Assembly (NCBI GenBank): GCA_965203555.1
Contig: CBDBCY010000004.1
Span: 2,368,001 to 2,432,000 of the forward strand
Reading direction: 5' to 3'
DNA from: Acidimicrobiia bacterium
Lineage (GTDB): Bacteria; Actinomycetota; Acidimicrobiia; Spongiisociales; ZC4RG35
DNA length: 64,000 bases
Below, piece after piece: positions 12,680-36,058 of this stretch. Below the pieces are notes generated by a model, which saw only the letters and a program-made list of their open reading frames with translations, was not told the DNA's origin and did no database searches. The translations under genes were made by a program, and so were the position numbers. The first letter of the stretch is position 1. Each line of letters starts with the position of its first letter.

Positions 12680-12770
12680 CCACCCCGGCTCGTCCGGCGG
12701 TCAGCGGGGCCGGATGTCGGGAATGTTCCATCCGCGCCGGATGGGACCAAATCCCGTGAACCTCCCTTTC

Positions 12771-12831
12771 CAGGGACAGTGTCCCTGTTTTGGTATACAT
12801 TTTCGGGGATGGCATCCCTGTTTTGGTATAC
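12771..12831. repeat. Two 33-bp-period units, each with a short palindrome, upstream of the DUF433 gene
   Basis: tccctgttttggtatac at 12782-12798 and 12815-12831; palindromes cagggaca-g-tgtccctg and gggatg-g-catccc. Confidence 0.7.
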
Positions 12832-12959: not shown

Positions 12960-13679
12960 ATGAGCGAGGGTGACGGGATGGATCCGCGTTTCGACCGTCG
13001 GCTCTACACGGTGAGCGACGCCGCCCGGTACATTGGCATGAGTCCTACGACCCTTTCGGCTTGGACAAGGGAGAGGTCCGGTCGGAGGAAGCCTCGGTCC
13101 GGCGGTGGGGAGAGGCCGGTAGTGACCGCATTGGAAGCACGAAAGGGTGATCGTCGGCGGATTCCTTTCATAGGACTGATCGAGGCGACGGTTGTGCAGG
13201 CCTTCCGGCAGACCGGCCTTCCGATGCAGCGTATTCGTCGCGCCCTTCGGGTGCTTTCGGAGAGAGGCGAACTGGAACATGCTCTGGCTTCGAAGGGCTT
13301 GTTCACCGACGGCGCCGAGGTGCTGTACGACTACGCCTCCTATTCCGGCGATCCCCAGCTTCGTCTGCTCACCGTGGTACACACCGGCCGGCGGGTCTTT
13401 CACGAAGTTATATTGGAGTACGTGCGGAGAATCGATTTCGGAGACAACTGGGCGACCGGCTTGATTATCCCCATCACCAAGCGGGAACTTCTGAGGGTCC
13501 GTCCTGATGTGGCCGGTGGAGACCCGCTGTTCATGAACGGCGGGGCGCCGCTGTCAGCGGTGTACTCCCGGTATCGAGCCGGCGAGCCCATCGGTTCCAT
13601 AGCAGCCGACTTCGAAGTCCCCGCTGACGATATCGCCGAGAGCATCCGTGCCGTCTGGCCGCGATCCGAAGCAGCCTGA
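12960..13679 (+). CDS. DUF433/HTH antitoxin (VapB45-like)
   Basis: N-terminal HTH LYTVSDAARYIGMSPTTLSAW, FIGLIEA..AFR..GLPMQRIR, C-terminal DUF433 PDVAGGDP..RYRAGE..IAADF. Confidence 0.85.
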   Translation: MSEGDGMDPRFDRRLYTVSDAARYIGMSPTTLSAWTRERSGRRKPRSGGGERPVVTALEARKGDRRRIPFIGLIEATVVQAFRQTGLPMQRIRRALRVLSERGELEHALASKGLFTDGAEVLYDYASYSGDPQLRLLTVVHTGRRVFHEVILEYVRRIDFGDNWATGLIIPITKRELLRVRPDVAGGDPLFMNGGAPLSAVYSRYRAGEPIGSIAADFEVPADDIAESIRAVWPRSEAA

Positions 13680-14076
13680 TCCCGACACCGCGATCTTTTT
13701 CCTGGACCGTTCGGTAGGTAAGAACACTGTGGCCGCCGCGCTCCGGGAACAGGGTGTCGACGTGCGGCATATGGGAGAGATCTACCCTTCTGACGGCCAA
13801 TTCATCTCTGATCCCGAATGGACACTTCGTTGTGATCAGGAAGGCTGGGTGGCAAGCACCAAGGACGGTCGTATCGTTGGTGACCACTGGGAGGCTATCG
13901 AGTCGGCGGGGCTTCGTCTCTTCGTTTTCCCCAACGCGAACCTGACCGGAGAGGAAATGGGTGCCCGAATCAGGAACAACTGGAGTCGTATCTTGGCCCA
14001 CCTCCGCAAACCGGGACCATATGCGTACGCGATACTGCCCCGCGGTCTCGACAGACGGTGGCCTGCCAAAGGTTGA
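13648..14076 (+). CDS. PIN-domain toxin (VapC45-like)
   Basis: FFLDRSVG..VAAALR, D.EW, GWVASTKDGRI; overlaps the antitoxin stop. Confidence 0.82.
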   Translation: MPSGRDPKQPDPDTAIFFLDRSVGKNTVAAALREQGVDVRHMGEIYPSDGQFISDPEWTLRCDQEGWVASTKDGRIVGDHWEAIESAGLRLFVFPNANLTGEEMGARIRNNWSRILAHLRKPGPYAYAILPRGLDRRWPAKG

Positions 14077-14088
14077 GCACCGGCAGTT

Positions 14089-15921
14089 TCAGCTTATCCG
14101 TGTTCGAGCAGCGCGCAGGGCGTCGGCCATGGCCCCGGTGCCGGAAAAGGTGACGGTGAGGGTCTGGGTTGCCCGGGTCATCGCCGTGTACAGCAGCCTC
14201 TTTTGGGCATCGATCCTGCTGGAGACATCTTCATCCCTCACCCATATGTGGTTGGCGGCTCCTATGATCACATGGGGAAACTCGAGACCCTTGAAGAGAT
14301 GAAGAGTGGCCATCCGTACCGCGTCTCGGACAAAGGCTGACTTATCCTTGTTCCGGAAAGGCCGCCGGGCGTTGAACCAGCGCACTCCACTCTTCTGAAG
14401 TTCTTGCCGCACGTAATGTCTCTGCCGTTTGTGACCTGACAACACCACTATGTCTCTTGGTTCTACTCCTGCGTCAAGCCTCTCTTTCACCTGGCGAGCT
14501 ATCTCCGTGGTTTCAGCCCTCAGGTCTGCGCATTCCAGAAGGAGCGGTCTCGGCCCGCTCCGTTCGGCCGCCTCGGGCAGCACCAGCGTCTCGAGATCGT
14601 TGGCGACGGCCCGGCTTGGGGTCCGGTTGGGGCCCACCAATATATCGACGGCTGGCTCAAGTATCTCACGGGTGTTGCGGTAGTTTCGCCGGAGAATGGT
14701 GGAGCGTCCGCGGGCGGTCATTCCCGGCGGGTTCCAGGTCATCCGTCTCCGGTAGATGTTCTGAGCGCTGTCCAGCGCCATCACGAAATGGTCCTTGTCC
14801 GACTTGAGCATTGCGTGGGCCAGTTCGAGATGGGAGGGTTCCAGGTCCTGTGCCTCATCAACCAGGACCAAGTCGTATTTGTCAGAATCGCTCAGGTCTT
14901 CGGCATTGTTCTTGGCATCGATTCGTCTCTGCCGCCACTTCTCTTCATCTGGCAGATTCGGTGGCGAACCTCCGGCAGGCTCCTCTACCAGTTCGTATGC
15001 CAAGGCGTCCACCGTCTTGACCTTGATATTGGAGGTGCCCGCCACCTCCTTCTTCAACGCGGCAAACAATGGCCGGTTGAAGCACAATAACAGGATGTGG
15101 GTCGACGGGAAGTGCTCGGCGAAGTATCTGGCGCGATAGGTGAGTACCAGGGTCTTGCCGCTTCCCGCCACGCCGCGGATGATCCGATAGCCGGGTCCGA
15201 GCGACATCGCCAGCCGCTCTTGCCGTCTGTCGAGCACCGCGATGGCTTGGTCGGGATCAGAAAGGGAGGGTGGATCGAATAGCAGCCGTCCCTGGTCGGC
15301 GTCCTGATCATCTTTGATGACGATCCTGGGATTGACCGCCGCACGAACAACCTTTTCGTTCTCCTCCGTCAACGATGGAGATTTCCCTCCCAGGATGCGG
15401 CGAAGGGCCATCCCCAGATTCTTCGGCTGGAAGTCCTCCCTCGATAGCAGGGGAGTGTTGCGGCCAGCGGAGGCAACTCTGGCTCGGGGGACCTCCGGCA
15501 AGGCGATCGCATGCCTGATGGGAAGTTCACTGATTCGAGAAGTGCCGGAGATGTGAATCCGCTGAGAAAGCCCTTCTGCTCTCGTCTTTACATCGCTCTG
15601 GATATGGGCAAGGTCGAGCTTGCGGCGTAAAGCCAGCACTCCCCTGCGGGCCAGGGAGCGAGGGGAAGGCGCTTCCAGAACGGCGATTCCAGATGCCGGA
15701 TCGAATACCACCAGGTAGGGATCCTGGTCCGTTGGAGAGGACACCTGGTCGAAATCGATTTCAAACTCCGAGGCCAAGGTGACGCGATCACCGGTCCCGG
15801 TTCTCTCCAGCCACACTGTCACCTCCTCCGGCAAGAAATCGCGCAAGGCCCGGGCAACGGTCTGCAGGCGGGCGGGCAGATCGTTGCGACTGGGAATGTT
15901 CTGAGGTATCAGGAAGGCCAT
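14089..15921 (-). CDS. Superfamily 1 (UvrD-like) helicase with a degenerate N-terminal NERD-like domain
   Basis: GVAGSGKT, LLLCFNRPL, LVDEAQD, DSAQNIY, RNYRNTREI, TLHLFKGLEF, LLYTAMTRA; ATG directly abuts the upstream TAG. Confidence 0.88.
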   Translation of the reverse strand: MAFLIPQNIPSRNDLPARLQTVARALRDFLPEEVTVWLERTGTGDRVTLASEFEIDFDQVSSPTDQDPYLVVFDPASGIAVLEAPSPRSLARRGVLALRRKLDLAHIQSDVKTRAEGLSQRIHISGTSRISELPIRHAIALPEVPRARVASAGRNTPLLSREDFQPKNLGMALRRILGGKSPSLTEENEKVVRAAVNPRIVIKDDQDADQGRLLFDPPSLSDPDQAIAVLDRRQERLAMSLGPGYRIIRGVAGSGKTLVLTYRARYFAEHFPSTHILLLCFNRPLFAALKKEVAGTSNIKVKTVDALAYELVEEPAGGSPPNLPDEEKWRQRRIDAKNNAEDLSDSDKYDLVLVDEAQDLEPSHLELAHAMLKSDKDHFVMALDSAQNIYRRRMTWNPPGMTARGRSTILRRNYRNTREILEPAVDILVGPNRTPSRAVANDLETLVLPEAAERSGPRPLLLECADLRAETTEIARQVKERLDAGVEPRDIVVLSGHKRQRHYVRQELQKSGVRWFNARRPFRNKDKSAFVRDAVRMATLHLFKGLEFPHVIIGAANHIWVRDEDVSSRIDAQKRLLYTAMTRATQTLTVTFSGTGAMADALRAARTRIS

Positions 15922-21147
<5,226 letters not shown>

Positions 21148-21290
21148 TGGAGCTCTCGATCAGCAGATCCCTGTTGGGAGTGAAGCCGGAGGCCGTACCC
21201 TCCCTCTTCCACGCGACTGCTCAGGCTGTTCTCGACACTCTCCGGAGTCTCACACCGTCCGGGACACCCTTGATTTTGACTAGAATAGGA

Positions 21291-21303
21291 TTGACAGAGT
21301 CAA
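21291..21303. promoter_or_regulatory. Palindrome TTGAC-N3-GTCAA upstream of the ACP gene (possible operator)
   Basis: ttgacagagtcaa, just downstream of TAGAAT (21281-21286) and upstream of the GAGGAG RBS. Confidence 0.35.
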
Positions 21304-21325
21304 CTATTCATGTGAGGAGAGCAAA

Positions 21326-21562
21326 GTGTCTTCAACCGAGGAACGAGTCAAAGCGCTGGTCGCTGCGAACCTGGAAGTGGACGGTCAACCATTGGGTGGT
21401 TCTCTGAACCTGGAAGTCAGCCTGGTGGATCATGGAGTGTCGTCTTTGGATCTGGTGGCGTTTGCCAAGGTGGTCGCCCAGGACTTTGGCGTGACCTTCA
21501 GCACCGAAGACTGCGCGAGTATCAACACCATCCAGGGTCTCATAGATTTCTTGGACGGCTGA
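21326..21562 (+). CDS. Stand-alone acyl carrier protein (SupB-like)
   Basis: 78 aa, acidic, LVDHGVSSLDLV..FGV.F..ED...I.TI..LIDF; directly upstream of a PPTase. Confidence 0.85.
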   Translation: MSSTEERVKALVAANLEVDGQPLGGSLNLEVSLVDHGVSSLDLVAFAKVVAQDFGVTFSTEDCASINTIQGLIDFLDG

Positions 21563-21629: not shown

Positions 21630-22466
21630 GTGGGTTGCCGAGTCGGAGGAAGCGCGGACTCCGTCGACGACCCTTGGTGGCGTCTCCTCAAATTGACCGG
21701 TCGCCTTGAGATCAATCATGTGAGCCTGGTGCCACACTCGTCCCACGAGGAAAGAGCCTGGGACTGGTTGAGTGACGAAGAACGGCGGCGGTGGGAGAGG
21801 TTCTTGCGTTCAGGTCCCCGGCGCCGTTTTGCTCTGTGCCGGGCCGCGCTGCGGGCGGTTCTCTGCTCCCGGTTGGGTTGTGACAACCGGGATCTCGCTT
21901 TCGAAGTCTCCGAATATGGAAAGCCCTTTGCTCTGTTGCGAGGAGAGAGAGCACCCATCGGATTCAACGTAAGCCACAGCGGAAACCACGGGCTCATTGC
22001 GCTGGCCGAACAGGGAAGGGTGGGGGTTGACGTGGAGGAGCGAAAGTGCCGGGGGGACCTGGACGACCTGGCTGAAACTGTTTTCGGAGCGGAAGAGCGG
22101 GCCCTTGTTGCCGAGTTGCAGGGAGAAGCCAAGCTCCGTACTTTCTACGATTTCTGGACTGTCAAGGAAGCCTTGGCCAAAGCCTTGGGCACGGGCCTCC
22201 ATACGGACTTTGCACGGTTTCAGGTACCACCGGGGATGCGTGGAGGCGAGCGGACCGGCCTCTTCCGGTTTCCCCATCTGTCAGACGTGATTTGGGAGGT
22301 GGAGAATCTCGGTAGCAGACAGACTGCTATGGCCGTGGCTCTTGAAGTGGATCCCAAAGGGACAGGTAGGTTAACCCCCGGAGTCGCTCACTCCGGATGG
22401 GAGCAAGACGGTCAACCTTTCCGGTCGAAGCCGGGGAGGAGGCGCCGGCATCAAACCCGGGGCTGA
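21630..22466 (+). CDS. Sfp-type 4'-phosphopantetheinyl transferase (SupC-like)
   Basis: LSDEERRRWERF, YGKP, FNVSHSG, VGVDVE, FWTVKEALAKALGTG; start uncertain. Confidence 0.92.
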   Translation: MGCRVGGSADSVDDPWWRLLKLTGRLEINHVSLVPHSSHEERAWDWLSDEERRRWERFLRSGPRRRFALCRAALRAVLCSRLGCDNRDLAFEVSEYGKPFALLRGERAPIGFNVSHSGNHGLIALAEQGRVGVDVEERKCRGDLDDLAETVFGAEERALVAELQGEAKLRTFYDFWTVKEALAKALGTGLHTDFARFQVPPGMRGGERTGLFRFPHLSDVIWEVENLGSRQTAMAVALEVDPKGTGRLTPGVAHSGWEQDGQPFRSKPGRRRRHQTRG

Positions 22467-25666: not shown

Positions 25667-28600
25667 ATGACGCTGAGAGAGTCTTCCGGCCCATCCAGAC
25701 GATCCGTCGCCTCTTTCGTGGCCGAAGAACGGGACATGTCTTCGAGCGGAGAGCCGATCGCGATCGTGGGCATGGCGTGCCGGTTCCCCGGCGCGCCCGA
25801 TCTGGCGGCCTTCTGGCGGCTTCTGGAAAGGGGCGGGAACGCGGTGACAGAAGGAGTCCCCGGCTCGGGGGTGGGGCGAGTGGGCGAGCTCTATCCGGAT
25901 GCCGAAGTCCAGAGCGAGGCCTGCCGTTTCGGAGCTTTCATCGAGGGGATCGACCTGTTCGACGCTGAGTTCTTTCGCATCTCGCCGGTGGAGGCGCAAC
26001 TCCTGGACCCTCAACAGAGGTTGATGTTGGAGACCAGTTGGCAGGCCCTGGAAGATGCGGGCATGGACCCGGAACGATTGAAGGGAAGCCGCACCGGGGT
26101 CTACATCGGCATCAGCAACATGGACTACCGGCTCCTGAACCTGGATTCCAGCCAGACCGCCGAGGCTGCCACCAGCCTGTACGCCGTGAGCGGCACCTCC
26201 CTGAACACCGCGGCCGGGCGGGTCGCCTTTGCCCTGGGCCTGGAAGGGCCCGCCATGGCGGTGGACACCGCCTGCTCCTCGTCGCTGGTGGCGGTGCACC
26301 AGGCGGTCTCGGCCCTGCAGCGGGACGAGGCGAGTGTGATCCTGGCCGGTGGAGTGCAGGCGGTCCTCAACGGTCGTCTGACCGAGTTGCGGGCCAATGC
26401 CCGGATGTTGTCCCCGGATGGAAAATGCAAGGCCTTCGACGCCTCGGCCAACGGCTTCGTCCGTGGGGAGGGCTGCGGAATAGTGGTGCTGAAGAGGCTC
26501 AGGGATGCAGAGGCTGACGGCGACCGGATCTGGGGAGTGATCCTGGGATCCGCCCTCAACCAGGACGGCACGAGTGCCGGGTTCACGGTACCCAGCGAAC
26601 GGGCCCAGGCAGAGGTGATCACCGAAGCGCTGCGCCGGGCCGGGGTCGCTCCCTGGCAGGTGGACTACCTGGAGGCTCACGGAACGGGCACCGAGGTTGG
26701 CGACCCGATCGAGTTGAACTCCGCCGGCGCCGTGTACGGCCAGGGCAGGGAACCGGACCGGCCCCTGCTGGTCGGCTCGGTCAAGACGAACATCGGCCAC
26801 TTGGAACCGGCGGCCGGAGTCGCCGGTCTGATGAAGGTCATCCTGTCGATGCAGCATGGGACAGTGCCCAAGCATTTGCACTTCCGGGACCCGAACCCCG
26901 GCGTGGCCTGGGACGCCCTCCCGTTGCAGATAGCCACTGAATGCACCGACTGGCCGGTGCATACCGACCGTCCTCCCCGGGCGGGCATCAGCGCCTACGG
27001 GTGGTCGGGAACCAACGCCCACGTGGTTGTCGAAGGATATGGGGAGCCGGTACGTGGCTCGGACCAAGGAGGGAGACCGTCAGGACCTGCGGGCCTCTAT
27101 CGCGACATTGCCGTGTCTCTACCCAATTCGGGCGCCGGGATGGCGCCCTCCCCGGACGAAGTCGCAGACCGCCCGGCGCGGCTCCTGCCCCTCTCGGCCA
27201 AGTCGGAGGTCGCCTTGCGTGAGTTGGCGGACCGCTACCTGTCCTGGTTGGATGAGCAGGCAGACGCCCCATCAGCCAATGGATCCGCCGCCGACCTGCA
27301 CCCCGGTGACATGACGTGGACCGCCGCAGAGGGTCGCGGGCACTTCGACTTCCGGGCCGGAGTGGTCTTCCGGGACATGGCTTCCCTGCGAGCCGGTTTG
27401 AAGGCAGTCGCCGGGATGGAATCTCCATCTTCCCCGCGGAATGCCCGGAGGGTGGCCTTCGCCTTCACGGGGCAGGGCGCCCAGTGGCAGGGTATGGGCC
27501 AATCCCTCTATCGCAGCGAACCGGTCGCCCGGGCCGTTCTGGACCGATGCGACCAACTGATCCGACAAGAGCGGGGAGTGTCACTGCTGGATGTCATGTT
27601 CGGCAGGCCCGCCGCGGCAGGTGACCTGCACGACCCGGCGTGGACCCAGCCGGCCATCTATGCCCTGCAGTGCGCCCTCTCCGCTCTCTGGGAGAGCGTG
27701 GGGATCAGGCCCGAGGTGGTGCTGGGACATAGCCTGGGCGAGATTGCGGCCGCGCATGCCGCCGGAGTCTTCACCCTTGAAGAGGGACTCCGGTTCGCCT
27801 CCACCAGGGGGACGCTGATGGCGGCCCTTCCCAGCGCCGGGGCGATGGCCGCGGTGTTCGCCCCCGAACGCCGGGTGAAGGCGGAGGTGGCCGAATGGAA
27901 TGAAGCCCGCGGCGCCGCCGACCTTTGCGTTGCGGTGGACAACGGCGCTCACCAGGTGATCAGCGGTCCGGCCGCGCAAGTGCACGCCTTTTCGGACCGC
28001 ATGGAGGAGGCGGGTGTGAAGGTACGACGGCTGGCGCCCAGCCCCGCCTACCACAGCCCGCTGGTGGAACCGGCCCTCGACGACCTGGAGGCATTCTTCG
28101 CGGACGTGGCCGTCTCTTCGGCCGGAATCCCGCTGGTCAGCAACGTGACGGGAAGGGTGGTGGAGCCCGGCATGGCGATGGATGGGGCTTACTGGCGCCG
28201 TCAGGCCGGTGAGCCGGTCGCCTTCCGAAGCTCCGTGGAGACGCTGGCCGCCCTGGGCGTGGATGCGGTTATCGAGCTTGGGCCCCACGCGGTGCTCGGG
28301 CCCCTGGTTTCGGTCAACTGGCCCCAGAACCCGGGGAACCTTGAGGGCCCTGCGGTGCTGGTCAGTCTGCTGCGGCCTTCCTGGGACGGGTCGGAGCCCG
28401 AGAGGGCCGATGCCTTCCTGCAGGCGGTGGCTGGAGCCTACGAGGGGGGCCTGCCCGTCTCCTTTGAGGGACTGTTCGCCGGGGAGTCCCGGCGCCGGGT
28501 GGCCCTGCCCGGATATCCCTTCCAGCGACGGCGCCACTGGGTGCCGAAGGCGGGGAGGCGGAGACGGGGCGACGCCCACCCCCTGCTGGGTGTCAGGCAC

Positions 28601-31600
28601 GAGTCCCCGCGCGGCGAGATCATGTTCGAGACGGAGATGTCTCCGTCGGATCCCGGGTGGCTGTCCGACCACCAGGTCTACGGGCGGGTGGTGATGCCCG
28701 GCGCGGTCTACGGGGCCATGGCCGCCTCCGCGTCAGTGGCCGACGGGCGCGGACCGGCAGCAGTCGAGGACCTGCAACTACATAACCCGCTGGTATTTCC
28801 GTCCCACGACGCGGGCAGCGAGGCGGAAGTCCCGGGTCGGCAGGTGCAAGTGCTCCTGGACAAGGTGGATGGCGCCCAGCCCCGGGGATTCGAGATCTTT
28901 AGCAGGGGGCCTAACGAAGAGGGTTGGACGATTCACGCCGAGGGCAGGCTGGTCCCCATCGATGGGCGCTTGGATGGTCGGGACCGGACCGACCCGGGCG
29001 TCTTGAGGGCCGGGATGCAGATCCAGGACCTGCGCGCCTATTACCGGGCCAAGGAGGCGACCGGGATTGACTTCGGCCCGCGCTTTAGGTCCCTGGAAGC
29101 TCTGTGGGGACGACCGGGGGAGGCGGTCGGCGAGGTTGTCCTGACAGAACCCGGGGAAGCAGGAGGCTCGCAGATACACCCGCTGTTGCTGGACGGGTGC
29201 TTCCAGGTGCTGTCGGCAGCCCGCGACCTGGCCGGTGTCGGGACCGGCGCCACCTACCTGCCTTTCGCCTGGGAGCGACTGTGGTTGAACGGTCCCCTTC
29301 CTGACCGGTTGGTCTGCCATGCTCGCATGAGAGACTCCGACCGGACTGCCGATGCCCAGGCGGGGGAACAGCCGGAAACCCTGACAGGGGACTTGATTTT
29401 CTACGATCACCAGGGTGCGGTCCTCGGCGGACTGGAGGGATACACCGTAAAGCGGGCCACCCGGGCGGCGCTCCTCTCGGCCTCGGAGGAACTGGGGGAG
29501 ATGCTCTACGAGGTGGCCTGGCGTGAACGCCCACTGGCCGGTGGGCTGGTGTCGGCCGAAGCTCTGACCGGGCCGGCGGCGGTGAGTGAAAACACGAGCC
29601 CGTTTGCAGACTATCTGTCGAGCGAGGGTGTGGCGATGGAGGACCGCGCCATGCTCCTCAACGACCTGGAGTGTCTCTCCCGCTCATACGCTCTCGCCGC
29701 CCTGGAAGAGTTGGGCTGGCGACGGCGCCGCGGCGAGGCGGTCGAGCCCGAGACTCTCCGAGATCTTTTGGGGATCGAACCGGAACACACCAGGTTGGTG
29801 GGACGATTGCTCCGGCTGGTGAGGGACGCCGGACTGCTCAGTGGACCCGATGATGAGGGGAGATACATCGTAGAAGTCGACACCGGGGGACCCTTGGGGG
29901 ATGAAGCACTGGCCGACTCCGAGGCCTTTGCAGACAGGGTGGCGGAACGGCACCCCCATGGCCTCAACGAGTTGGGCCTGGTAAGGAGGAGCGGCATCGC
30001 CCTGGCGGGCGGGCTTTGCGGGACCGTCGACATCCTGGAGGTCCTCTTTCGCAGCGAGGGACCGGGGGTAACCGAGTACTACTTCGCCGCCCCCGCCTCC
30101 CGGGCGTCCAACCGGCTCCTGGCCGACGCGGTTGCCCAGGTGGCGAAGGACTGGCCGGAGGATCGACCCCTGCGGGTGATCGAGGTCGGAGCGGGCACGG
30201 GTTCGGCCACGTCGGTGGTGTTGGCGGAACTCCCGGACGCGTGTGACTACATGTTCACCGACATCTCGGCCGGCTTCTTTGCGGAAGCAGAAAGCCGGTT
30301 TGCAGATTCGCCGATACCGATGGAGTACCGACCGCTGGACATTGAAAGGGCGCCGTCCGCCCAGGAATTCGAACCTCATGCCTACGACCTGATCATTGCG
30401 GCGAACGTGCTCCACGCCACTCGCGATCTGGATGAGACCCTGACCAACTGCCTCGAGTTGCTGGCGCCCTCCGGCCAGTTGATCGCGCTGGAGAACATGC
30501 GGGGTCGCGGCTGGCAGGACATCACCTTCGGACTGCTGGATGGCTGGTGGCGGTTCGCCGACGACTGCCGACCGGATCACGCCATGGCTCTGCCCTCGGT
30601 TTGGCGTCAGGCTCTGGTGGATGCGGGCTATGACGAGGTGAGTTTCCTGGGGATCGAGGGAGTCGAAGAGGGCGGGCCCTTTGGCTCCAGCGTCTTTCTC
30701 GCGCAGGGTCCGGCGGAAGTCGCCCTACCCGCCGGATTGTGGGTGATGTGCTCGGCGGGCGACGATGTGAGCCTTGAGATGGCGAGAGAACTGGCGAGAA
30801 GGAACCAGACCGTGGTTGTGGCCGATTCGACTCTGCCACCCGGTCCGCCCGAGGGCGAGCGGAAGGTTGTTAGGAGGGCCGTGGTGGCCGACAGCCGGGA
30901 GTCGTGGCGGGACCTTCTCGATGAACTCCCCGAAGACATTCCGTTCCGGGGTGTGGTGCACCTGGGCGCCCTCCGGGGGCACGGACCGCAGGCTTCCGTG
31001 GCACAACTGCGGGAGGACACCACGGATGCCGGGGGCAGCGCCCTGGCCCTGGTGCAGGCCCTGCTGGACGCCGATGTCGCTCCGGAGAACGGTCTCTGGT
31101 TCATCACATTGGGTGCTCAGGCGCTGGAACGGGACTACATGCGCGATTGCGTCGGAGAACCGGCCGGGGCCGTCCTGTGGGGCTTCGGCAGAGCGGTGGC
31201 CAGAGAAGCATCCCACCTTCTCCCGCGCATGCTGGACATCGACCCCGCCGATCCGGCCCCTATCACCCGTCTGGTCGACGAACTCATGTATGCCGACCAG
31301 GAAACCCAGGTCGCTCTCCGGGACGGCGACCGACTGGCCGCCCGCCTGATCCGAACCGGGGCCTCCAGAACCCGCGTGGACCTGCCGGAAGACCCGGCTT
31401 GGCGTCTCATGCCCGACGCGGAGGGAATGCTGGAAGGACTCTCCGCCCAGCCTGCACCGAGGCGGCCCCTGGGACCGGGGCAGGTCCGGGTGGCGGTGGA
31501 AGCAGTCGGGGTTAACTTCCTGGACGTACTGCTGAGCATGGGCGTGGTGGATTCGGCAGAGCCCCTGCTGGGCGAGGAATTCTGCGGGGGAATAGTGGAG

Positions 31601-34600
31601 ACCGCCCCGGACGTCACCGATTTCGCGGTGGGCGACCGCGTGGCCGGACTCTCCTTCGGCACCTTCTCACCCGAGGTGGTGACGCAGGTGGAGTTGGTGG
31701 CGCAGGCACCGCGTGGTGTCTCGGCCGCCGCCCTGGCGACCATCCCGTCGGCCTTCGTGAGCGCCGGGCTGAGCTTCGAGATGGCCGGGTTGAAGGCCGG
31801 TGCCCGTGTGCTCATCCACACCGCCTCGGGTGGGGTGGGACTGGCGGCGGTGCAGTTGGCGCAGGCCGCAGGCTGGGAGGTGTTCGCCACGGCCAGCGCC
31901 CCCAAGCAAGCGTATTTGCGGTCTGTGGGGATCGAGCATGTCTTCGACAGTCGAACAACCGACTTCGGGCGGGGAGTCCTGGATGCAACGGGCGGCGACG
32001 GAGTGGACATGGTGCTGAACAGCCTCACCGGCCCCGGGTTCATCGAGGCCAGCCTGTCCTGTCTGGCCCCCGGAGGAAGTTTCGTGGAGATGGGACGCCG
32101 GGACATATGGAGCCCCGAGGAGATGGCGGAGTCCCGCCCCGATGTCTCCTACTCCATCCTGGAACTGGACTGGCTGAAGAAGAACGAACCGGCCCACCCG
32201 GGCGCGGTGCTCCGCGACGTGATGGAGAGGATCACCACCGGCGCCTTGGCCCCGCTGGCCCACACCCGGTGGCCGATCGCCGAGGCCCCGGCCGCCATGG
32301 ACTTCATGCGCTCAGCACGCCACATCGGTAAGAACGTGCTGGTGATGCCACCCCTGGCCGGCGGTCGGTTGCGGCCCAACGGCACCTACCTGGTCACCGG
32401 CGGCCTGGGAGGTATCGGCATGGAAGTGGCCAAGTGGCTGGCAGGCCATGGTGCGGGCGTGATTGTCCTGAACGGTCGTAGGCCCCCCGACCCCGCCGCC
32501 CGGAGAGCGATCAAGGCTCTCGAGCGCCAAGGCGCCGATGTACGGGTGGAGTTGGCCGACGTGACCCAGGCTTCGGCCGTGGATGAGATGCTGGCCCGTC
32601 TGGACGCCCAAGCCCCTCCCCTGGCGGGCGTCATCCACAGCGTGGGCGTGCTGTCCGACGGCGCCCTCGGTAACCAGACCTGGGAACGTTTTGAACGGGT
32701 GTTGTGGCCCAAGGTTTTGGGAGCCTGGCATCTGCACCGGGCCACCTCGGACCGCGACCTGGACCTGTTCGTTCTGTTCAGCAGCATCACCGGGGTACTG
32801 GGTAAATCGGGCCAGGCCAATCACGCCGCGGCCAATACCTTCCTGGACCAACTGGCCGCATACCGAAGGTCCCTGGGACTCCCCGGTCAGGCCATCGCGT
32901 GGGGCGCCTGGTCGGAGTTGGGAGAAGCCGAGGAGCAGAGAGAACGGATCGAGCGGCAACTCGAAGCGCAGGGTACCGGCTGGATCAGTCCTGAACAGGG
33001 TCTTGACGCCTTTCACGAACTGGTCCGCCGGGACTTGACCTCCTCCATGGTGGGAGCGGTGGACTGGCCGGTCTTCACCGAGAACTATGAAGGCGCTCCC
33101 AGCTTTTTCGAAGACCTGCTCCCCGGAGGGCTGGAGTCCGGGGAGGATGACGGGGCGGCCTCCGGTCCAACCGACGTGCTTTCGGAATTGAGACATGGGG
33201 CGCCTGCGGATTGGGAAGGGTTGCTGGTCTCCTTCCTGCAGCGGGAGTTGCAGGCGGTGCTGAGGCTTCCGTCGGTCCCCGCCCCGGCGGTTGGTTTCTT
33301 CGACCTGGGAATGGACTCGTTGATGTCGGTGGAGTTCCGCAACCGGCTGAACCGGTCCCTGTCCGGGGAGTTCGTACTGTCGAGCACCGCGGTGTTCGAC
33401 TACCCCAGCCTCGACAGCCTGGCCGGCCACCTGCTCGAGGAACTCACCCCGACCATGGCATCCGATACCCCCGACGCCACCAGGGAATCTCCCGTTCCGG
33501 ACCGCCCTCCTCAGGCGCCACGCGACGAGGACGACATAGCCGTCGTGGGTATGGCCTGCCGCTTCCCCGGCGCCTCGGATCTCCCGGCCTTCTGGCGTCT
33601 CCTGGAATCAGGCGAAAACGCGGTGACCGATGGACGGACGGATGGCGGCCCCTGGAGCGGCGTTACCGGAGACCCTGCCGCAGGCGATGCGGTCTATCGG
33701 CGCGGAGGCTTCGTGGAGGGAATCGACTACTTCGACTCCAGGTTTTTCCGCATCTCCCCCATCGAGGCGCAATTGATGGATCCGCAGCAACGGATGCTTC
33801 TCGAAACCGCCTGGCAAGCCTTGGAGGACGCCGCAATGGACCCCGAGCAGCTGAGGGGCAGCCGCACCGGCGTCTATGCCGGGGTGGGCAGCCCCGAATA
33901 CCGGGACGTGATCGCGGCCGGCGGCAGGGAAGACAGTTACCTGGGGACCGCTCCCAGCGTGGCGGTCGGCCGCGTCGCATTCGCGCTGGGCCTGGAGGGA
34001 CCAGCCATGCCGGTGGACATGGCCTGCGCCTCCTCCCTGGCAGCGGTGCACCAGGCGGTGGCGGCTCTGCAGGGAGGGGATGTGGACCTGGCCTTGGTGG
34101 GCGGGGTGAACGCAACGTTGTCCCAGGCTTTTGTCAGATTCCACCTGGACATCGGCATGCTGTCCGCCACGGGGCGGTGTCGCGCCTTCGACGCCGCGGC
34201 CGACGGCTTCGTCCGGGGGGAGGGCTGCGGGGTGGTGGTCCTGAAGCGGCTCGGCGAGGCGGAGGCCGACGGCGACCGTATATGGGCGGTGATACGAGGG
34301 TCTGCGGTCAACCAGAACGGAGCCAGCGCCGCACTGACGGTGCCGAACGGCCCGGCCCAGGAGCGCGTGATGACAGAAGCCCTTGCCCGGGCCGGAGTCT
34401 CCCCGTCCGACGTCGACTACCTGGAGGCGCATGCGGTCGGCTCCCAACTGGGCGACCCGATCGAGTTGAATGCGGTGGGGGCGGTTTACGGCGCCCAGCG
34501 CGACCCGCGACGTCCGCTGCTGATCGGATCGGTGAAATCGAACATCGGGCACATTGAATGGGCGGCAGGGATCGCCGCCTTCATCAAGACGGTCCTATCC

Positions 34601-36058
34601 CTGAATAAGGGAGTGATACCGGAGAGTCTTCATCTCGAAACCCCGAATCCGAACGTCGAATGGGACCGGATACCGGTGCGGCTTACGTCCAGCAGGACGG
34701 ACTGGCCTACGGTCTCCGACCGCCCGCCTCTGGCGGGTATCAATGCCTCCGGACTCTCGGGAACCAATGCGCATGTCCTGGTGGAGGGCTACAGGGCGTC
34801 GGCGGGTGTTCCCGCGGAAAGTAACGGCGCATCTTTGCCAACCGGTGCTCCCAAGCCGATACCTGTGTCGCTTCCGGGACCGGTTGACGACCTTTCGATC
34901 TCCGGGCCAAGACCGCCGGAGCGAACCGTTCGTCTATTGCCGCTCTCCGGGAAGTCCGAGGGTGCGCTCCGGGAACTGGCGGAGCGGTACCTGGGGTGGC
35001 TCGACGGCGACGAGGGGCCCGCCTCCGATGCGACCCTGTCCGACTTGGCCTGGACTGCGGGCGTGGGCCGCGGTCACTTCCCGCACCGCGCCTGTCTTCC
35101 ATTCGGCGACGTCGAACAACTTCGGAAGCGACTGCATGGGTTGGCGGGCGCCGATGGGACACCGACGCCGCAAGCTCTCCACCGGGCGACCAGAGTTGCA
35201 TTCGCGTACCCCGGACAGGACAGCCGACGGATTGGCATGGCAGAGGCGCTGTACCGCAGCGAGCCGGTGGCGCGGGCAGTGCTGGACCGGTGCGACGAAC
35301 TGATTCGTCAAGACCGGGGGTTCTCGCTGCTTGATGTGATGTTCCGTCGCACCGGGGTCAACCAGGACCCGAACGATCCGGCGTGGGTCCTGCCGGCTGT
35401 CTATGCGCTCGGCTGCGCCCTGACCGCGCAGTGGGCGAGCGTAGGCATACGGCCCAGTGCGGTGGTGGGCAACGGTCCAGGAGCGCTGGCGGCAGGGCAG
35501 GTGGCCGGAGTATTCAGCCTTGAGGAAGGTCTGCGACTCGCGGCGGCATTGGGCAACCTCAAGAAGACGTGGTCGGAGCAGGGCGGGCAGGATACGCTCG
35601 GAAGCCCGCAGACGGCGCTCGCCGACGTTACGGTCTCCGCGCCTACCGTCGCCCTGGTCGGCAGCGCGACTGGACGGCTGGTGGATTCCGTTGGCGCCCT
35701 TGACCTCAACCACTGGCTCAGGCAGGCCGAGGAACCCGTGGACTTTTCCGGCTGTGCAGAGACTTTGGCCCAGCTTGGAGCGGATGTGGTAGTGGGGATC
35801 GGTTCCGCCCCGGGGCTGGGCCGACCGATTGTTGACGCTTGGCCGGAGGCCGCCGGGCCGCCGGTCGTGATTTCCGCGCTGGCGAGTCCGTCCGGCGACA
35901 AAGAATCGCCGGACTCCGATGGCGGGTTCGCGAGAGCAGTGGCTGGTGCATACGAGGCCGGGCTGGACGTCTCTTTTGCCGGATTGTTTGCCGGAGAGTC
36001 CCGGCGTCGAATTTCTATCCCGACTTACGCCTTCCAACGCAGGCGACACTGGATCTAA
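25667..36058 (+). CDS. supA: Sup-type type I PKS/FAS: KS-AT-DH-cMT-ER-KR-ACP-KS-AT(inactive)
   Basis: KS1 DTACSSS/HGTGT/GH; AT1 GHSLG..AYHS; DH HQVYGRVVMPG; MT IEVGAGTG; ER HTASGGVG; KR GGLGGIG..QANHAAAN; ACP GMDSL; KS2 DMACASS/HAVGS; AT2 GNGPG. Domain order and neighbouring genes match sponge-symbiont SupA. The start may be 25736. Confidence 0.9.
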   Translation: MTLRESSGPSRRSVASFVAEERDMSSSGEPIAIVGMACRFPGAPDLAAFWRLLERGGNAVTEGVPGSGVGRVGELYPDAEVQSEACRFGAFIEGIDLFDAEFFRISPVEAQLLDPQQRLMLETSWQALEDAGMDPERLKGSRTGVYIGISNMDYRLLNLDSSQTAEAATSLYAVSGTSLNTAAGRVAFALGLEGPAMAVDTACSSSLVAVHQAVSALQRDEASVILAGGVQAVLNGRLTELRANARMLSPDGKCKAFDASANGFVRGEGCGIVVLKRLRDAEADGDRIWGVILGSALNQDGTSAGFTVPSERAQAEVITEALRRAGVAPWQVDYLEAHGTGTEVGDPIELNSAGAVYGQGREPDRPLLVGSVKTNIGHLEPAAGVAGLMKVILSMQHGTVPKHLHFRDPNPGVAWDALPLQIATECTDWPVHTDRPPRAGISAYGWSGTNAHVVVEGYGEPVRGSDQGGRPSGPAGLYRDIAVSLPNSGAGMAPSPDEVADRPARLLPLSAKSEVALRELADRYLSWLDEQADAPSANGSAADLHPGDMTWTAAEGRGHFDFRAGVVFRDMASLRAGLKAVAGMESPSSPRNARRVAFAFTGQGAQWQGMGQSLYRSEPVARAVLDRCDQLIRQERGVSLLDVMFGRPAAAGDLHDPAWTQPAIYALQCALSALWESVGIRPEVVLGHSLGEIAAAHAAGVFTLEEGLRFASTRGTLMAALPSAGAMAAVFAPERRVKAEVAEWNEARGAADLCVAVDNGAHQVISGPAAQVHAFSDRMEEAGVKVRRLAPSPAYHSPLVEPALDDLEAFFADVAVSSAGIPLVSNVTGRVVEPGMAMDGAYWRRQAGEPVAFRSSVETLAALGVDAVIELGPHAVLGPLVSVNWPQNPGNLEGPAVLVSLLRPSWDGSEPERADAFLQAVAGAYEGGLPVSFEGLFAGESRRRVALPGYPFQRRRHWVPKAGRRRRGDAHPLLGVRHESPRGEIMFETEMSPSDPGWLSDHQVYGRVVMPGAVYGAMAASASVADGRGPAAVEDLQLHNPLVFPSHDAGSEAEVPGRQVQVLLDKVDGAQPRGFEIFSRGPNEEGWTIHAEGRLVPIDGRLDGRDRTDPGVLRAGMQIQDLRAYYRAKEATGIDFGPRFRSLEALWGRPGEAVGEVVLTEPGEAGGSQIHPLLLDGCFQVLSAARDLAGVGTGATYLPFAWERLWLNGPLPDRLVCHARMRDSDRTADAQAGEQPETLTGDLIFYDHQGAVLGGLEGYTVKRATRAALLSASEELGEMLYEVAWRERPLAGGLVSAEALTGPAAVSENTSPFADYLSSEGVAMEDRAMLLNDLECLSRSYALAALEELGWRRRRGEAVEPETLRDLLGIEPEHTRLVGRLLRLVRDAGLLSGPDDEGRYIVEVDTGGPLGDEALADSEAFADRVAERHPHGLNELGLVRRSGIALAGGLCGTVDILEVLFRSEGPGVTEYYFAAPASRASNRLLADAVAQVAKDWPEDRPLRVIEVGAGTGSATSVVLAELPDACDYMFTDISAGFFAEAESRFADSPIPMEYRPLDIERAPSAQEFEPHAYDLIIAANVLHATRDLDETLTNCLELLAPSGQLIALENMRGRGWQDITFGLLDGWWRFADDCRPDHAMALPSVWRQALVDAGYDEVSFLGIEGVEEGGPFGSSVFLAQGPAEVALPAGLWVMCSAGDDVSLEMARELARRNQTVVVADSTLPPGPPEGERKVVRRAVVADSRESWRDLLDELPEDIPFRGVVHLGALRGHGPQASVAQLREDTTDAGGSALALVQALLDADVAPENGLWFITLGAQALERDYMRDCVGEPAGAVLWGFGRAVAREASHLLPRMLDIDPADPAPITRLVDELMYADQETQVALRDGDRLAARLIRTGASRTRVDLPEDPAWRLMPDAEGMLEGLSAQPAPRRPLGPGQVRVAVEAVGVNFLDVLLSMGVVDSAEPLLGEEFCGGIVETAPDVTDFAVGDRVAGLSFGTFSPEVVTQVELVAQAPRGVSAAALATIPSAFVSAGLSFEMAGLKAGARVLIHTASGGVGLAAVQLAQAAGWEVFATASAPKQAYLRSVGIEHVFDSRTTDFGRGVLDATGGDGVDMVLNSLTGPGFIEASLSCLAPGGSFVEMGRRDIWSPEEMAESRPDVSYSILELDWLKKNEPAHPGAVLRDVMERITTGALAPLAHTRWPIAEAPAAMDFMRSARHIGKNVLVMPPLAGGRLRPNGTYLVTGGLGGIGMEVAKWLAGHGAGVIVLNGRRPPDPAARRAIKALERQGADVRVELADVTQASAVDEMLARLDAQAPPLAGVIHSVGVLSDGALGNQTWERFERVLWPKVLGAWHLHRATSDRDLDLFVLFSSITGVLGKSGQANHAAANTFLDQLAAYRRSLGLPGQAIAWGAWSELGEAEEQRERIERQLEAQGTGWISPEQGLDAFHELVRRDLTSSMVGAVDWPVFTENYEGAPSFFEDLLPGGLESGEDDGAASGPTDVLSELRHGAPADWEGLLVSFLQRELQAVLRLPSVPAPAVGFFDLGMDSLMSVEFRNRLNRSLSGEFVLSSTAVFDYPSLDSLAGHLLEELTPTMASDTPDATRESPVPDRPPQAPRDEDDIAVVGMACRFPGASDLPAFWRLLESGENAVTDGRTDGGPWSGVTGDPAAGDAVYRRGGFVEGIDYFDSRFFRISPIEAQLMDPQQRMLLETAWQALEDAAMDPEQLRGSRTGVYAGVGSPEYRDVIAAGGREDSYLGTAPSVAVGRVAFALGLEGPAMPVDMACASSLAAVHQAVAALQGGDVDLALVGGVNATLSQAFVRFHLDIGMLSATGRCRAFDAAADGFVRGEGCGVVVLKRLGEAEADGDRIWAVIRGSAVNQNGASAALTVPNGPAQERVMTEALARAGVSPSDVDYLEAHAVGSQLGDPIELNAVGAVYGAQRDPRRPLLIGSVKSNIGHIEWAAGIAAFIKTVLSLNKGVIPESLHLETPNPNVEWDRIPVRLTSSRTDWPTVSDRPPLAGINASGLSGTNAHVLVEGYRASAGVPAESNGASLPTGAPKPIPVSLPGPVDDLSISGPRPPERTVRLLPLSGKSEGALRELAERYLGWLDGDEGPASDATLSDLAWTAGVGRGHFPHRACLPFGDVEQLRKRLHGLAGADGTPTPQALHRATRVAFAYPGQDSRRIGMAEALYRSEPVARAVLDRCDELIRQDRGFSLLDVMFRRTGVNQDPNDPAWVLPAVYALGCALTAQWASVGIRPSAVVGNGPGALAAGQVAGVFSLEEGLRLAAALGNLKKTWSEQGGQDTLGSPQTALADVTVSAPTVALVGSATGRLVDSVGALDLNHWLRQAEEPVDFSGCAETLAQLGADVVVGIGSAPGLGRPIVDAWPEAAGPPVVISALASPSGDKESPDSDGGFARAVAGAYEAGLDVSFAGLFAGESRRRISIPTYAFQRRRHWI

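Follow-up and report, generated by a model that had tools for sequence, protein, structure and literature searches.

A patchily distributed two-gene cassette of Acidimicrobiia pairs an exonuclease-DinG-RecQ fusion protein with a UvrD-like helicase

We analysed a stretch of 64,000 nucleotides from the genome of an Acidimicrobiia bacterium (assembly GCA_965203555.1, contig CBDBCY010000004.1, positions 2,368,001 to 2,432,000), hereafter called the window, in whose numbering coordinates are given. Its minus strand carries two directly abutting genes. The first encodes P0001, a protein in which a DEDDh 3′-5′ exonuclease, a DinG/XPD-type helicase and a RecQ-family helicase are joined in one chain; the second encodes P0002, a UvrD-like helicase of superfamily 1 (SF1). 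In Acidimicrobiia, the two genes form a conserved, patchy, accessory cassette, which is a candidate for action on foreign or aberrant DNA.

A single reading frame encodes an exonuclease and two helicases

Gene 1 (15922..21147, minus strand) was identified from the list of open reading frames (ORFs) and its translation. The frame, of 1741 amino acids, is unbroken from 21147 to a TAG stop codon at 15922-15924. A preliminary description of this DNA, made from its letters alone, had proposed one uninterrupted ORF of about 1740 codons and had placed the domains along it; the length is indeed as proposed and the Pfam coordinates agree with the layout. The N-terminal ~70 residues vary among homologues in our alignments. 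Because they are not conserved, M51 (ATG 20997-20995) may be the true start of the protein.

The DEDDh (RNase_T / DnaQ-like) 3′-5′ exonuclease domain occupies residues 74-246 (20410..20928, minus strand; PF00929, 7.7e-22). It is followed by the DinG/XPD-type helicase of superfamily 2 (SF2) at residues about 328-995 (18163..20166, minus strand), in which Pfam finds ResIII at 328-417 and Helicase_C_2 at 834-994. The RecQ-family helicase core comes next, at residues about 1062-1390 (16978..17964, minus strand; DEAD 1076-1239, Helicase_C 1284-1384), and is matched by the RecQ structures 4tmu and 1oyw at 1e-76. Solved RecQ structures match P0001 over residues 1064-1385 and, weakly, 1597-1639 only. 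Between the core and the zinc module lies a family-specific insert of about 190-200 amino acids (residues 1391-1581; 16405..16977, minus strand) that has no counterpart in these structures, the match showing a gap from 346 to 558 in the numbering of the query fragment. The chain ends with a four-cysteine RecQ zinc module (residues 1582-1626) and a conserved C-terminal region (residues 1627-1741), which together are encoded by 15925..16404 on the minus strand. The zinc module scores 25.5 bits with RecQ_Zn_bind (PF16124; cut-off 25), and RecQ_Zn_bind clusters are also the nearest to it in the protein atlas. Neither RQC nor HRDC gave a Pfam match on P0001 at E<=0.01; the presence of RQC on 21-88% of the members of two similar clusters listed by the protein atlas is a lead only. 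Thus, of the full RecQ helicase with zinc site and RQC that had been described at the outset, the core and the zinc site stand, and the RQC is not matched.

The catalytic residues were examined in an alignment of 11 homologues. Invariant positions were D77, E79, D165, H234 and D239 in the exonuclease, GKT 361-363 and DEAH 547-550 in the DinG part, GKS 1100-1102 and DEAH 1195-1198 in the RecQ part, and cysteines 1602, 1619, 1622 and 1625 in the zinc module. The comparison was extended to 84 full-length members of the family (the window, 74 cluster representatives of at least 1550 amino acids and 9 loci). Lysine 1101 and DEAH 1195-1198 of RecQ are retained in 84/84 of them, and K362 and DEAH 547-550 of DinG in 83-84. 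The zinc cysteines are kept in 78-83 members, and the residues of the DEDDh motif in 69-72. Because motif residues are retained across these members, all three catalytic modules of the fusion are under selection. No conserved cysteine cluster was found between the Walker A and DEAH motifs of DinG, either in the 11-sequence alignment or in the 84 members, and the DinG part is therefore of the kind devoid of iron-sulphur (Fe-S) cysteines. DinG of the Bacillota type is not known to carry an Fe-S cluster.

Family models of NCBIfam were then compared with their cut-offs. NF005981 (exonuclease-DinG) aligns end to end with residues 72-1001 (profile positions 4-915 of 931), though with a score of 401 it remains below the equivalog cut-off of 789, as does TIGR01407 (367 versus 547.7). 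In the C-terminal half, TIGR00614 (recQ_fam) reaches 305.2 bits over residues 1066-1385, above its subfamily cut-off of 219.8, and the canonical RecQ equivalog TIGR01389 stays below its own (365 versus 640 bits). By the subfamily model, the fusion is thus classed as a RecQ-family member, with an N-terminal part that is built like an exonuclease-DinG.

Integrity of the DinG-RecQ junction

An ORF of this kind could be a misassembled or chimeric frame, or two to three genes joined by a sequencing error. The chance of such an artefact is vanishingly small. A word-indexed search returned 570 relatives of P0001. The 120 listed measure 1631-1873 amino acids, with 50-81% identity; all 120, which come from many assemblies, are full length, and 119 carry RNase_T together with both helicase sets. 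Using residues 760-1400 in an exhaustive HMMER search, 98 of the best 150 clusters (50% identity) were found to extend over both the C-terminal domain of DinG and the core of RecQ. In addition, Logan contigs from a sequencing run containing this DNA bridge 17080-18400, inside which the DinG-RecQ junction lies, with 0 differences, and likewise 15400-17097, inside which the gene boundary lies, with 0 differences. The junction is also bridged in Logan by a 91%-identical relative from a separate study, and finished Thermus plasmids encode the same architecture. For an artefact speaks the fact that the fusion frame is split into two ORFs in three relatives (L053:1171-6524, L054:6668-11195 and L064:9923-13142). 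These splits fall within the DinG part or come with pieces missing, and may reflect frameshift, decay or assembly error. Given the full-length homologues, the junction-spanning clusters and the independent contigs across the junction, misassembly was rejected.

The Logan contigs of all four runs pile up at about 17072-17112 (summed depth 640-3930) and break there, which is the only contig break. The RecQ helicase motif encoded at this point (residues about 1345-1358) is hyper-conserved and near-identical by letter in many organisms of the samples. The break is an assembly-graph tangle and not a biological joint.

The partner is a UvrD-like helicase with a putatively NERD-like N-terminal domain

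Gene 2 (14089..15921, minus strand) encodes the 610 amino acids of P0002. The TAG of gene 1 directly abuts its ATG (15921-15919), a translational abutment that had been described correctly to the base. Both UvrD-helicase (PF00580, 44 bits) and UvrD_C (PF13361, 59.6 bits) score above the Pfam cut-offs, and the motifs GSGKT 253-257 and DEAQ 355-358 are invariant in an alignment of 20 partner sequences. The AlphaFold model of P0002 has a predicted local distance difference test (pLDDT) value of 76; its top folds in Foldseek are UvrD, PcrA and SLFN11, in the helicase core, with 1e-14 to 1e-15 for UvrD/PcrA. RecB and AddA models remain far below their cut-offs (TIGR00609, 24.9 versus 696; TIGR02785, 18.7 versus 708). 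The top PADLOC match is the defence-candidate model C3a187 'NERD+UvrD' (7e-53), which covers residues 184-592 only.

The N-terminal domain (residues 1-200; 15322..15921, minus strand) was compared among the same 20 partners. Its N-terminus, MAFxxPxN, is invariant and D74 almost so. At position 83 the partners carry E, D or Q; Ala-Pro comes next, and the Lys of a Glu-x-Lys site is missing. The Pfam NERD family (PF08378) matched 0/20 of these domains at E<=1 and was absent from all 120 listed P0002 homologues, and a profile search of the PDB with the domain gave no match. Therefore, of the 'NERD-UvrD' partner first proposed, the UvrD-like SF1 helicase was upheld; the NERD part was not supported by sequence and survives through language-model features, which are a lead only: in the protein atlas, 27 of the 30 nearest clusters to the domain are NERD, with scores of 0.91-0.93. 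In an AlphaFold model of the domain taken separately (pLDDT 65), the order of helices and strands fits a restriction-endonuclease-like fold. Foldseek returned nothing for this model at E<=0.001, Kpn2I, MUS81-EME1 and XisH being among the insignificant top matches. Overall, we regard the domain as NERD-like or PD-(D/E)xK-like and probably catalytically degenerate, as a lead and not as a finding.

The pair is strictly kept but patchily distributed in Acidimicrobiia

In the genome to which the window belongs (3.4 Mb, 4 contigs), the fusion is single-copy, and a separate stand-alone exonuclease-DinG of 990 amino acids, 39% identical to the fusion, is also present. The genomes searched are samples, and absence means absence among those searched. 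Out of 40 relatives (a tally that includes genome G038, with neither fusion nor partner), two carry a full-length fusion: the congener G003 (81%) and G033, a member of another family (52%). A full-length P0002 homologue occurs in exactly these two genomes, immediately downstream of the fusion, the copy in G033 having one in-frame TAG. Another congener, G001, has a P0002 fragment only, on a 1.7-kb contig. At the level of the genus, the fusion is found in 1/16 congeners as compared to 16/16 for the stand-alone exonuclease-DinG, and the idea of a universal housekeeping gene was rejected for the genus. Among 400 further genomes of the class, six carry the fusion: five of five in family f10, one in family f54 and 0/48 sampled in the family of the window. 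The patchiness for which the preliminary description had suggested to look is thus clearly visible.

We then examined 21 Acidimicrobiia loci with the fusion, taken from GTDB species representatives (L025-L043, L054 and L064, the last two with a broken frame). Many of them derive from metagenome-assembled genomes with names pointing to sponge symbionts. In all 21 loci, the next gene downstream of the fusion, on its strand and 0-385 nucleotides away, encodes a P0002 homologue, which answers positively whether homologues keep this neighbour. Besides the partner, neighbours recur only within small sets of closely related loci. The contigs that carry the Acidimicrobiia copies measure 2.7-4.1 Mb, and these copies are chromosomal. 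One genome (OZ241858.1) contains two diverged whole cassettes, L029 and L040, at distant sites and on different branches of the exonuclease-DinG tree. Overall, the pair is a conserved cassette, and it is accessory because its distribution is patchy, one genome holds two copies, its neighbours are unshared and its flanks are kept in congeners without the cassette.

Distant relatives keep the fusion and exchange its partner

When plasmids were searched in translation, P0001 was matched across both of its helicases by a 'RecQ family ATP-dependent DNA helicase' of Thermus megaplasmids; 20 Thermus records are found among the plasmid matches. Two of these proteins were examined, 'REC_DNA' / TT_RS10770 of Thermus thermophilus HB27 pTT27 (1649 amino acids) and TO73_RS12230 of T. 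aquaticus pTA78 (1684 amino acids). They show RNase_T, DinG (ResIII/DEAD_2, Helicase_C_2), RecQ (DEAD, Helicase_C) and RecQ_Zn_bind in the same order as P0001, with the same gap of ~190 residues before the zinc module and all catalytic residues retained. Unlike the closer homologues, they are about 30% identical to P0001 only. Moreover, the genes downstream do not encode an SF1 helicase but three proteins of unknown function (279-323, 157-180 and 502-514 amino acids). These three proteins have no Pfam family and form a four-gene operon with the fusion (L109:7753-15619, L110:8197-16168), which is conserved between HB27 and T. aquaticus at 35-47% identity. The product of its second gene is coiled-coil-like, and the second and fourth genes recur after the fusion in an uncultured bacterium (L052:18-8051). 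The pTA78 fusion lies just downstream of a Phd/VapC pair, and that of pTT27 lies 7 kb from cmr genes.

In print since 2005, the architecture widely carries the annotation 'RecQ family helicase'. In the accessible text of Omelchenko et al. (PMC1274311), it is noted on the HB27 megaplasmid as uncharacterised, present in HB27 and absent from HB8. According to excerpts of a 2026 transposon sequencing (Tn-seq) study (PMC13140390), the pTT27 recQ gene tolerates insertions very readily; it belongs to the shell genes and is dispensable. In our searches of the literature, no study characterising the fusion biochemically or genetically came up. Hence, the earlier statement that no characterised DinG-RecQ fusion was known agrees with the literature found, whereas its presentation as undescribed does not.

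A different partner is seen in four Chloroflexota loci (L046, L049, L050 and L053), where a protein of 2274-2375 amino acids with a sacsin domain directly follows a fusion about 30% identical to P0001. Two of these giant proteins were scanned and match the PADLOC model of Tiamat TmtA at 2e-158 and 4e-146. Yet another context is found at locus L045, in which a 2154-residue DrmMI / type IIG-like methylase and an Mrr_N protein are encoded upstream of the fusion. In the text of a 2026 preprint (10.64898/2026.09.30.754977), Tiamat is a validated anti-phage protein related to sacsin. Its neighbours are reported there to include helicases, among them a NERD-helicase predicted to bind Tiamat, in type I-G Tiamat systems, and 'Hrq1'-type SF2 helicases that are often fused to nucleases. 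According to that text, the NERD-like SF1 helicase and the Tiamat-like ATPase that accompany the fusion as alternatives are therefore also partners of each other. The obligatory coupling of the fusion to a NERD-like SF1 helicase within Acidimicrobiia, the swapping of partners and the link to Tiamat-like proteins appeared in no paper found, the figures and supplements of the Tiamat preprint being outside the scope of the search.

In order to place the fusions, trees were built for both halves. In the RecQ-core tree, 49 of 52 stand-alone RecQ-like sequences make one pure clade with the fused cores on the other side; the three others, which may be fragments, are nested among the fused ones. This tree is compatible with a single origin of all fusions, unlike the exonuclease-DinG tree, in which the Acidimicrobiia fusions are sister to the stand-alone exonuclease-DinG of their own class and the Thermus fusions make a separate clade. 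Indeed, an approximately unbiased (AU) test on the latter tree rejects a single clade of all fusions (log-likelihood difference 79.4, p-AU 6e-6); this test used 37 of 85 rows, and the tested group was named after viewing the FastTree tree. The same RecQ subfamily may have been fused on more than one occasion, or the exonuclease-DinG part of the fusion may have been exchanged or split off.

Genomic surroundings of the cassette

In the window, the cassette is surrounded by VapBC-like, acyl-carrier-protein, phosphopantetheinyl transferase, permease and polyketide synthase genes. Upstream of gene 1, a divergent intergenic region of 178 bp (21148..21325), presumably the promoter region, separates it from a free-standing acyl-carrier-protein gene (21326-21562, plus strand; PP-binding). 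The region contains a perfect inverted repeat, TTGACtctGTCAA (TTGAC-tct-GTCAA, 21291-21303), which could be an operator. A LexA-box-like site (TCGAAC-N4-GTTCGA, at most 2 mismatches) is absent from 20998-21330 and matches elsewhere in the window 8 times, a weak test as the consensus belongs to another actinobacterial class. The phosphopantetheinyl transferase gene lies at 21630-22466 (plus strand). Further away, a type I polyketide synthase of 3463 amino acids (25667-36058, plus strand) shows the modules KS-AT-DH-MT-ER-KR-ACP followed by a further KS region; its G+C content is 0.67-0.68 as compared to about 0.60-0.63 for the surroundings.

On the other side, a VapBC-like pair converges on the cassette, with an antitoxin-like gene (HTH_66 + DUF433; 12960-13679, plus strand) and a toxin-like gene (PIN_10; 13648-14076, plus strand). 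The preliminary description had taken this adjacent VapBC45 as a pointer to a defence system. The pair is not conserved, however: it recurs in congener G003 only, after the cassette, where it was judged by ORF sizes. As it is not a neighbour common to the loci, VapBC was rejected as a part of the system.

The flanking genes are kept without the cassette in congeners G002, G004, G005 and G007, but they are rearranged there, and no clean insertion site could be resolved from these flanks. In G007, a polyketide synthase gene sits between the genes that flank the cassette. A stretch of ~64 bp just 3′ of a luciferase-like gene (12767-12830) has two matches near the cassette of G003 and one in G007, the latter standing apart from the match of the main flank. 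The stretch could be a short repeat that marks a point of rearrangement. No tRNA gene was found in the window.

The same genome (G000) encodes, outside the window, a second giant helicase fusion of 1775 amino acids (L108:4879-10206, minus strand; G000:C4 about 1280878-1286205), in which a RecQ-like core (DEAD 317-490, Helicase_C 547-646) and a UvrD helicase (1126-1621) share one chain. Similar frames of 1727-1866 amino acids are found in several congeners. RecQ-like and UvrD-like motors are thus fused in this protein and neighbours in the cassette. No canonical stand-alone RecQ was found in the genome, the sole other RecQ-like core being the one inside this RecQ-UvrD fusion.

Proposed function and alternative explanations

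We propose that the pair is a machine for the surveillance and degradation of foreign or aberrant DNA, directed against phages or plasmids, a reading to which we give roughly even chances. The SF1 partner, via its NERD-like domain, would engage a DNA end, a nick or single-stranded DNA and recruit the fusion. The DinG (5′-3′) and RecQ (3′-5′) motors would then work on opposite strands at a duplex end or a fork, and the DEDDh exonuclease would receive the 3′-ended strand. Assembly of a complex, the polarities, the substrate and the defence phenotype are all inferred. In the accessible text of the respective papers, E. coli DinG moves 5′-3′ (PMC12525004), RqlH and RecQ move 3′-5′ (PMC3378886), and the exonuclease domain of Bacillus subtilis DinG degrades single-stranded DNA 3′-5′ as well as the RNA of hybrids (PMC12525004). 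A role against foreign DNA is favoured because the pairing is strict, the distribution patchy and the Thermus copies plasmid-borne, and because the core occurs with interchangeable partners of defence families. The defence-candidate model that heads the PADLOC matches of P0002 and the retention of the catalytic motifs point the same way.

Several observations weigh against this proposal. Every domain of P0001 and P0002 comes from a classic repair family, and Bacillus DinG is described as acting on R-loops and stalled forks (PMC12525004, in part). The N-terminal domain of P0002 is devoid of the canonical Glu-x-Lys of PD-(D/E)xK nucleases in the 20 partners aligned. Carriage by all five sampled genomes of family f10 fits vertical inheritance there. 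No fusion was found among 50,697 phage records, 0/37 matching records covering both helicases, and, outside Thermus, no plasmid spans both helicases among the 15 matches listed. Moreover, the cassettes of Acidimicrobiia do not lie in defence islands, which the preliminary description had suggested they might. Indeed, the neighbourhood scan (109 ORFs, three per side, at 20 Acidimicrobiia loci) gave no defence-island signal in the clade of the window, since the flanking ORFs are mostly metabolic (luciferase-like 8, MFS 4, SDR 3). Defence-type genes amounted to 2 PIN and 1 cytosine methylase, and neither integrase nor transposase was found among the 25 commonest families. A 3-methyladenine glycosylase (Tag) gene lies near the cassette in 4 loci and a UvrA gene in 1, which hints at repair.

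The pair could accordingly be a specialised module for repair or replication stress. The exonuclease-DinG part would remove R-loops and trim 3′ tails at stalled forks, the RecQ part would remodel forks, G-quadruplex (G4) DNA and recombination intermediates, and the UvrD-like partner would displace proteins or RecA filaments; the cassette would be kept as an extra pathway of genome maintenance in certain lineages, sponge symbionts and thermophiles among them. Although we hold it to be rather unlikely, this is a serious rival, because of the metabolic neighbours, the full carriage in family f10 and the classic repair domains. It also agrees with the removal of R-loops and the action at forks described for B. 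subtilis exonuclease-DinG (PMC12525004, in part), with the counting of the pTT27 recQ among recombination helicase-nuclease pairs in the excerpts of the Tn-seq study (PMC13140390), with the glycosylase and UvrA genes noted above, with the lack of a canonical stand-alone RecQ in the genome and with the sister position of the exonuclease-DinG part to the lineage's own stand-alone protein. Against repair stand the patchy distribution within a genus whose members all keep the stand-alone exonuclease-DinG, the two copies in one genome, and the plasmid carriage in Thermus with its differences between strains. The missing LexA-box-like site upstream also speaks against it, with the weakness of that test. 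What tips the balance towards defence over repair is that distant fusions have Tiamat-like and restriction-modification (RM)-like partners or the three-gene set.

The cassette might instead serve a mobile element, as a helicase-nuclease for plasmid or island maintenance, replication restart or counter-defence that became fixed in some chromosomes. Its presence on Thermus megaplasmids, its variable contexts with no conserved synteny and the toxin-antitoxin pairs that adjoin the fusion in the window and on pTA78 would fit such a role. We nevertheless consider it improbable, as no integrase, transposase, relaxase or replication gene was found among the 25 commonest neighbour families, the fusion is absent from the phage collection and the Acidimicrobiia copies are chromosomal.

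Beyond the defence function proposed for the pair itself, and with less confidence than we have in it, the fusion could be the core of a widespread, unnamed and modular anti-foreign-DNA family. It would then be a single-polypeptide analogue of RecBCD with lineage-specific sensor or effector partners, namely the NERD-like SF1 helicase, the Tiamat-like GHL ATPases in Chloroflexota, the RM-type methylase and the Thermus three-gene set; this broader view falls somewhat short of even chances. If the pair is a defence system, it would add a three-motor nuclease-helicase design to the known repertoire and would unite Tiamat, NERD-helicases and DinG/RecQ helicases in a common set of exchangeable parts. 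Combining 5′-3′ and 3′-5′ SF2 motors with an exonuclease in a single chain would represent a novel way of processing DNA ends. Should the pair prove to be a repair module, it illustrates how lineages devoid of canonical RecQ, as the present genome, build RecQ function into multi-helicase proteins. As the genetically tractable T. thermophilus HB27 holds the fusion on a dispensable megaplasmid, the choice between defence and repair is directly testable.

Comparison with known systems

No named system in PADLOC was matched by the cassette as a whole, so that the possibility of an already named system, raised at the outset, did not materialise there. Matches at the level of domains were nevertheless obtained. 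The PADLOC model typeIV_DinG of type IV-A CRISPR matches at 6e-103; as compared to Csf4, the score with TIGR03117 is below the cut-off (81 versus 400) and no Cas family is found among the scanned neighbours. DpdF matches at 2e-111, with NF041063 below its cut-off (217 versus 550) and no dpd genes adjacent. Weaker matches concern Gabija GajB (2e-15), with no gajA genes adjacent, and Nhi (3e-7). Hachiman HamB shares a likeness as a helicase-nuclease defence protein, and no hamA is adjacent to the cassette.

Tiamat is related to the cassette through exchanged partners. Distant fusions are directly followed by TmtA-like giants, and the text of the preprint places beside Tiamat helicases of the kind to which the window's partner, a NERD-like SF1 helicase, belongs. 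There is, however, no Tiamat gene among the genes scanned around the cassette of the window; the 25 families that are commonest in the 109 ORFs scanned around the Acidimicrobiia cassettes do not include TmtA, which was seen beside the distant Chloroflexota fusions only.

The C-terminal part resembles RqlH/PsyrT (Mycobacterium smegmatis RqlH; the RqlHI/PsyrTA toxin-antitoxin defence pair). As in P0001, a RecQ-like core is followed by a linker and a tetracysteine zinc domain with no HRDC, a layout described for RqlH in the accessible text of PMC3378886, where DinG fusions are not mentioned. The PADLOC PsyrT model matches P0001 at 9e-90 over the core, at profile positions 9-374 of 689 only. In contrast to RqlH/PsyrT, P0001 shows no Pfam match to a ComF or phosphoribosyltransferase-like C-terminal domain, and its neighbour is an SF1 helicase instead of an RqlI/PsyrA-type antitoxin.

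The N-terminal part resembles the exonuclease-DinG of Bacillota (B. subtilis, Staphylococcus aureus), with which it shares the N-terminal DEDD exonuclease, the DinG HD1/HD2 domains and the absence of an Fe-S cysteine cluster; P0001 adds a whole RecQ helicase at the C-terminus. By comparison, E. coli DinG has an Fe-S cluster (PMC12525004, in part). The eukaryotic WRN protein also combines a 3′-5′ exonuclease and a RecQ helicase in one chain, and WRN chains match the RecQ core at 1e-43. Finally, the likeness to RecBCD, AddAB and AdnAB is one of functional analogy, and the bipolar, RecBCD-like mode of action put forward in the preliminary description is still an inference. The architecture is not homologous, its motors being SF2 and SF2, with the SF1 helicase of the partner, rather than SF1A and SF1B. 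As in RecBCD, a nuclease is associated with motors that are expected to run in opposite directions.

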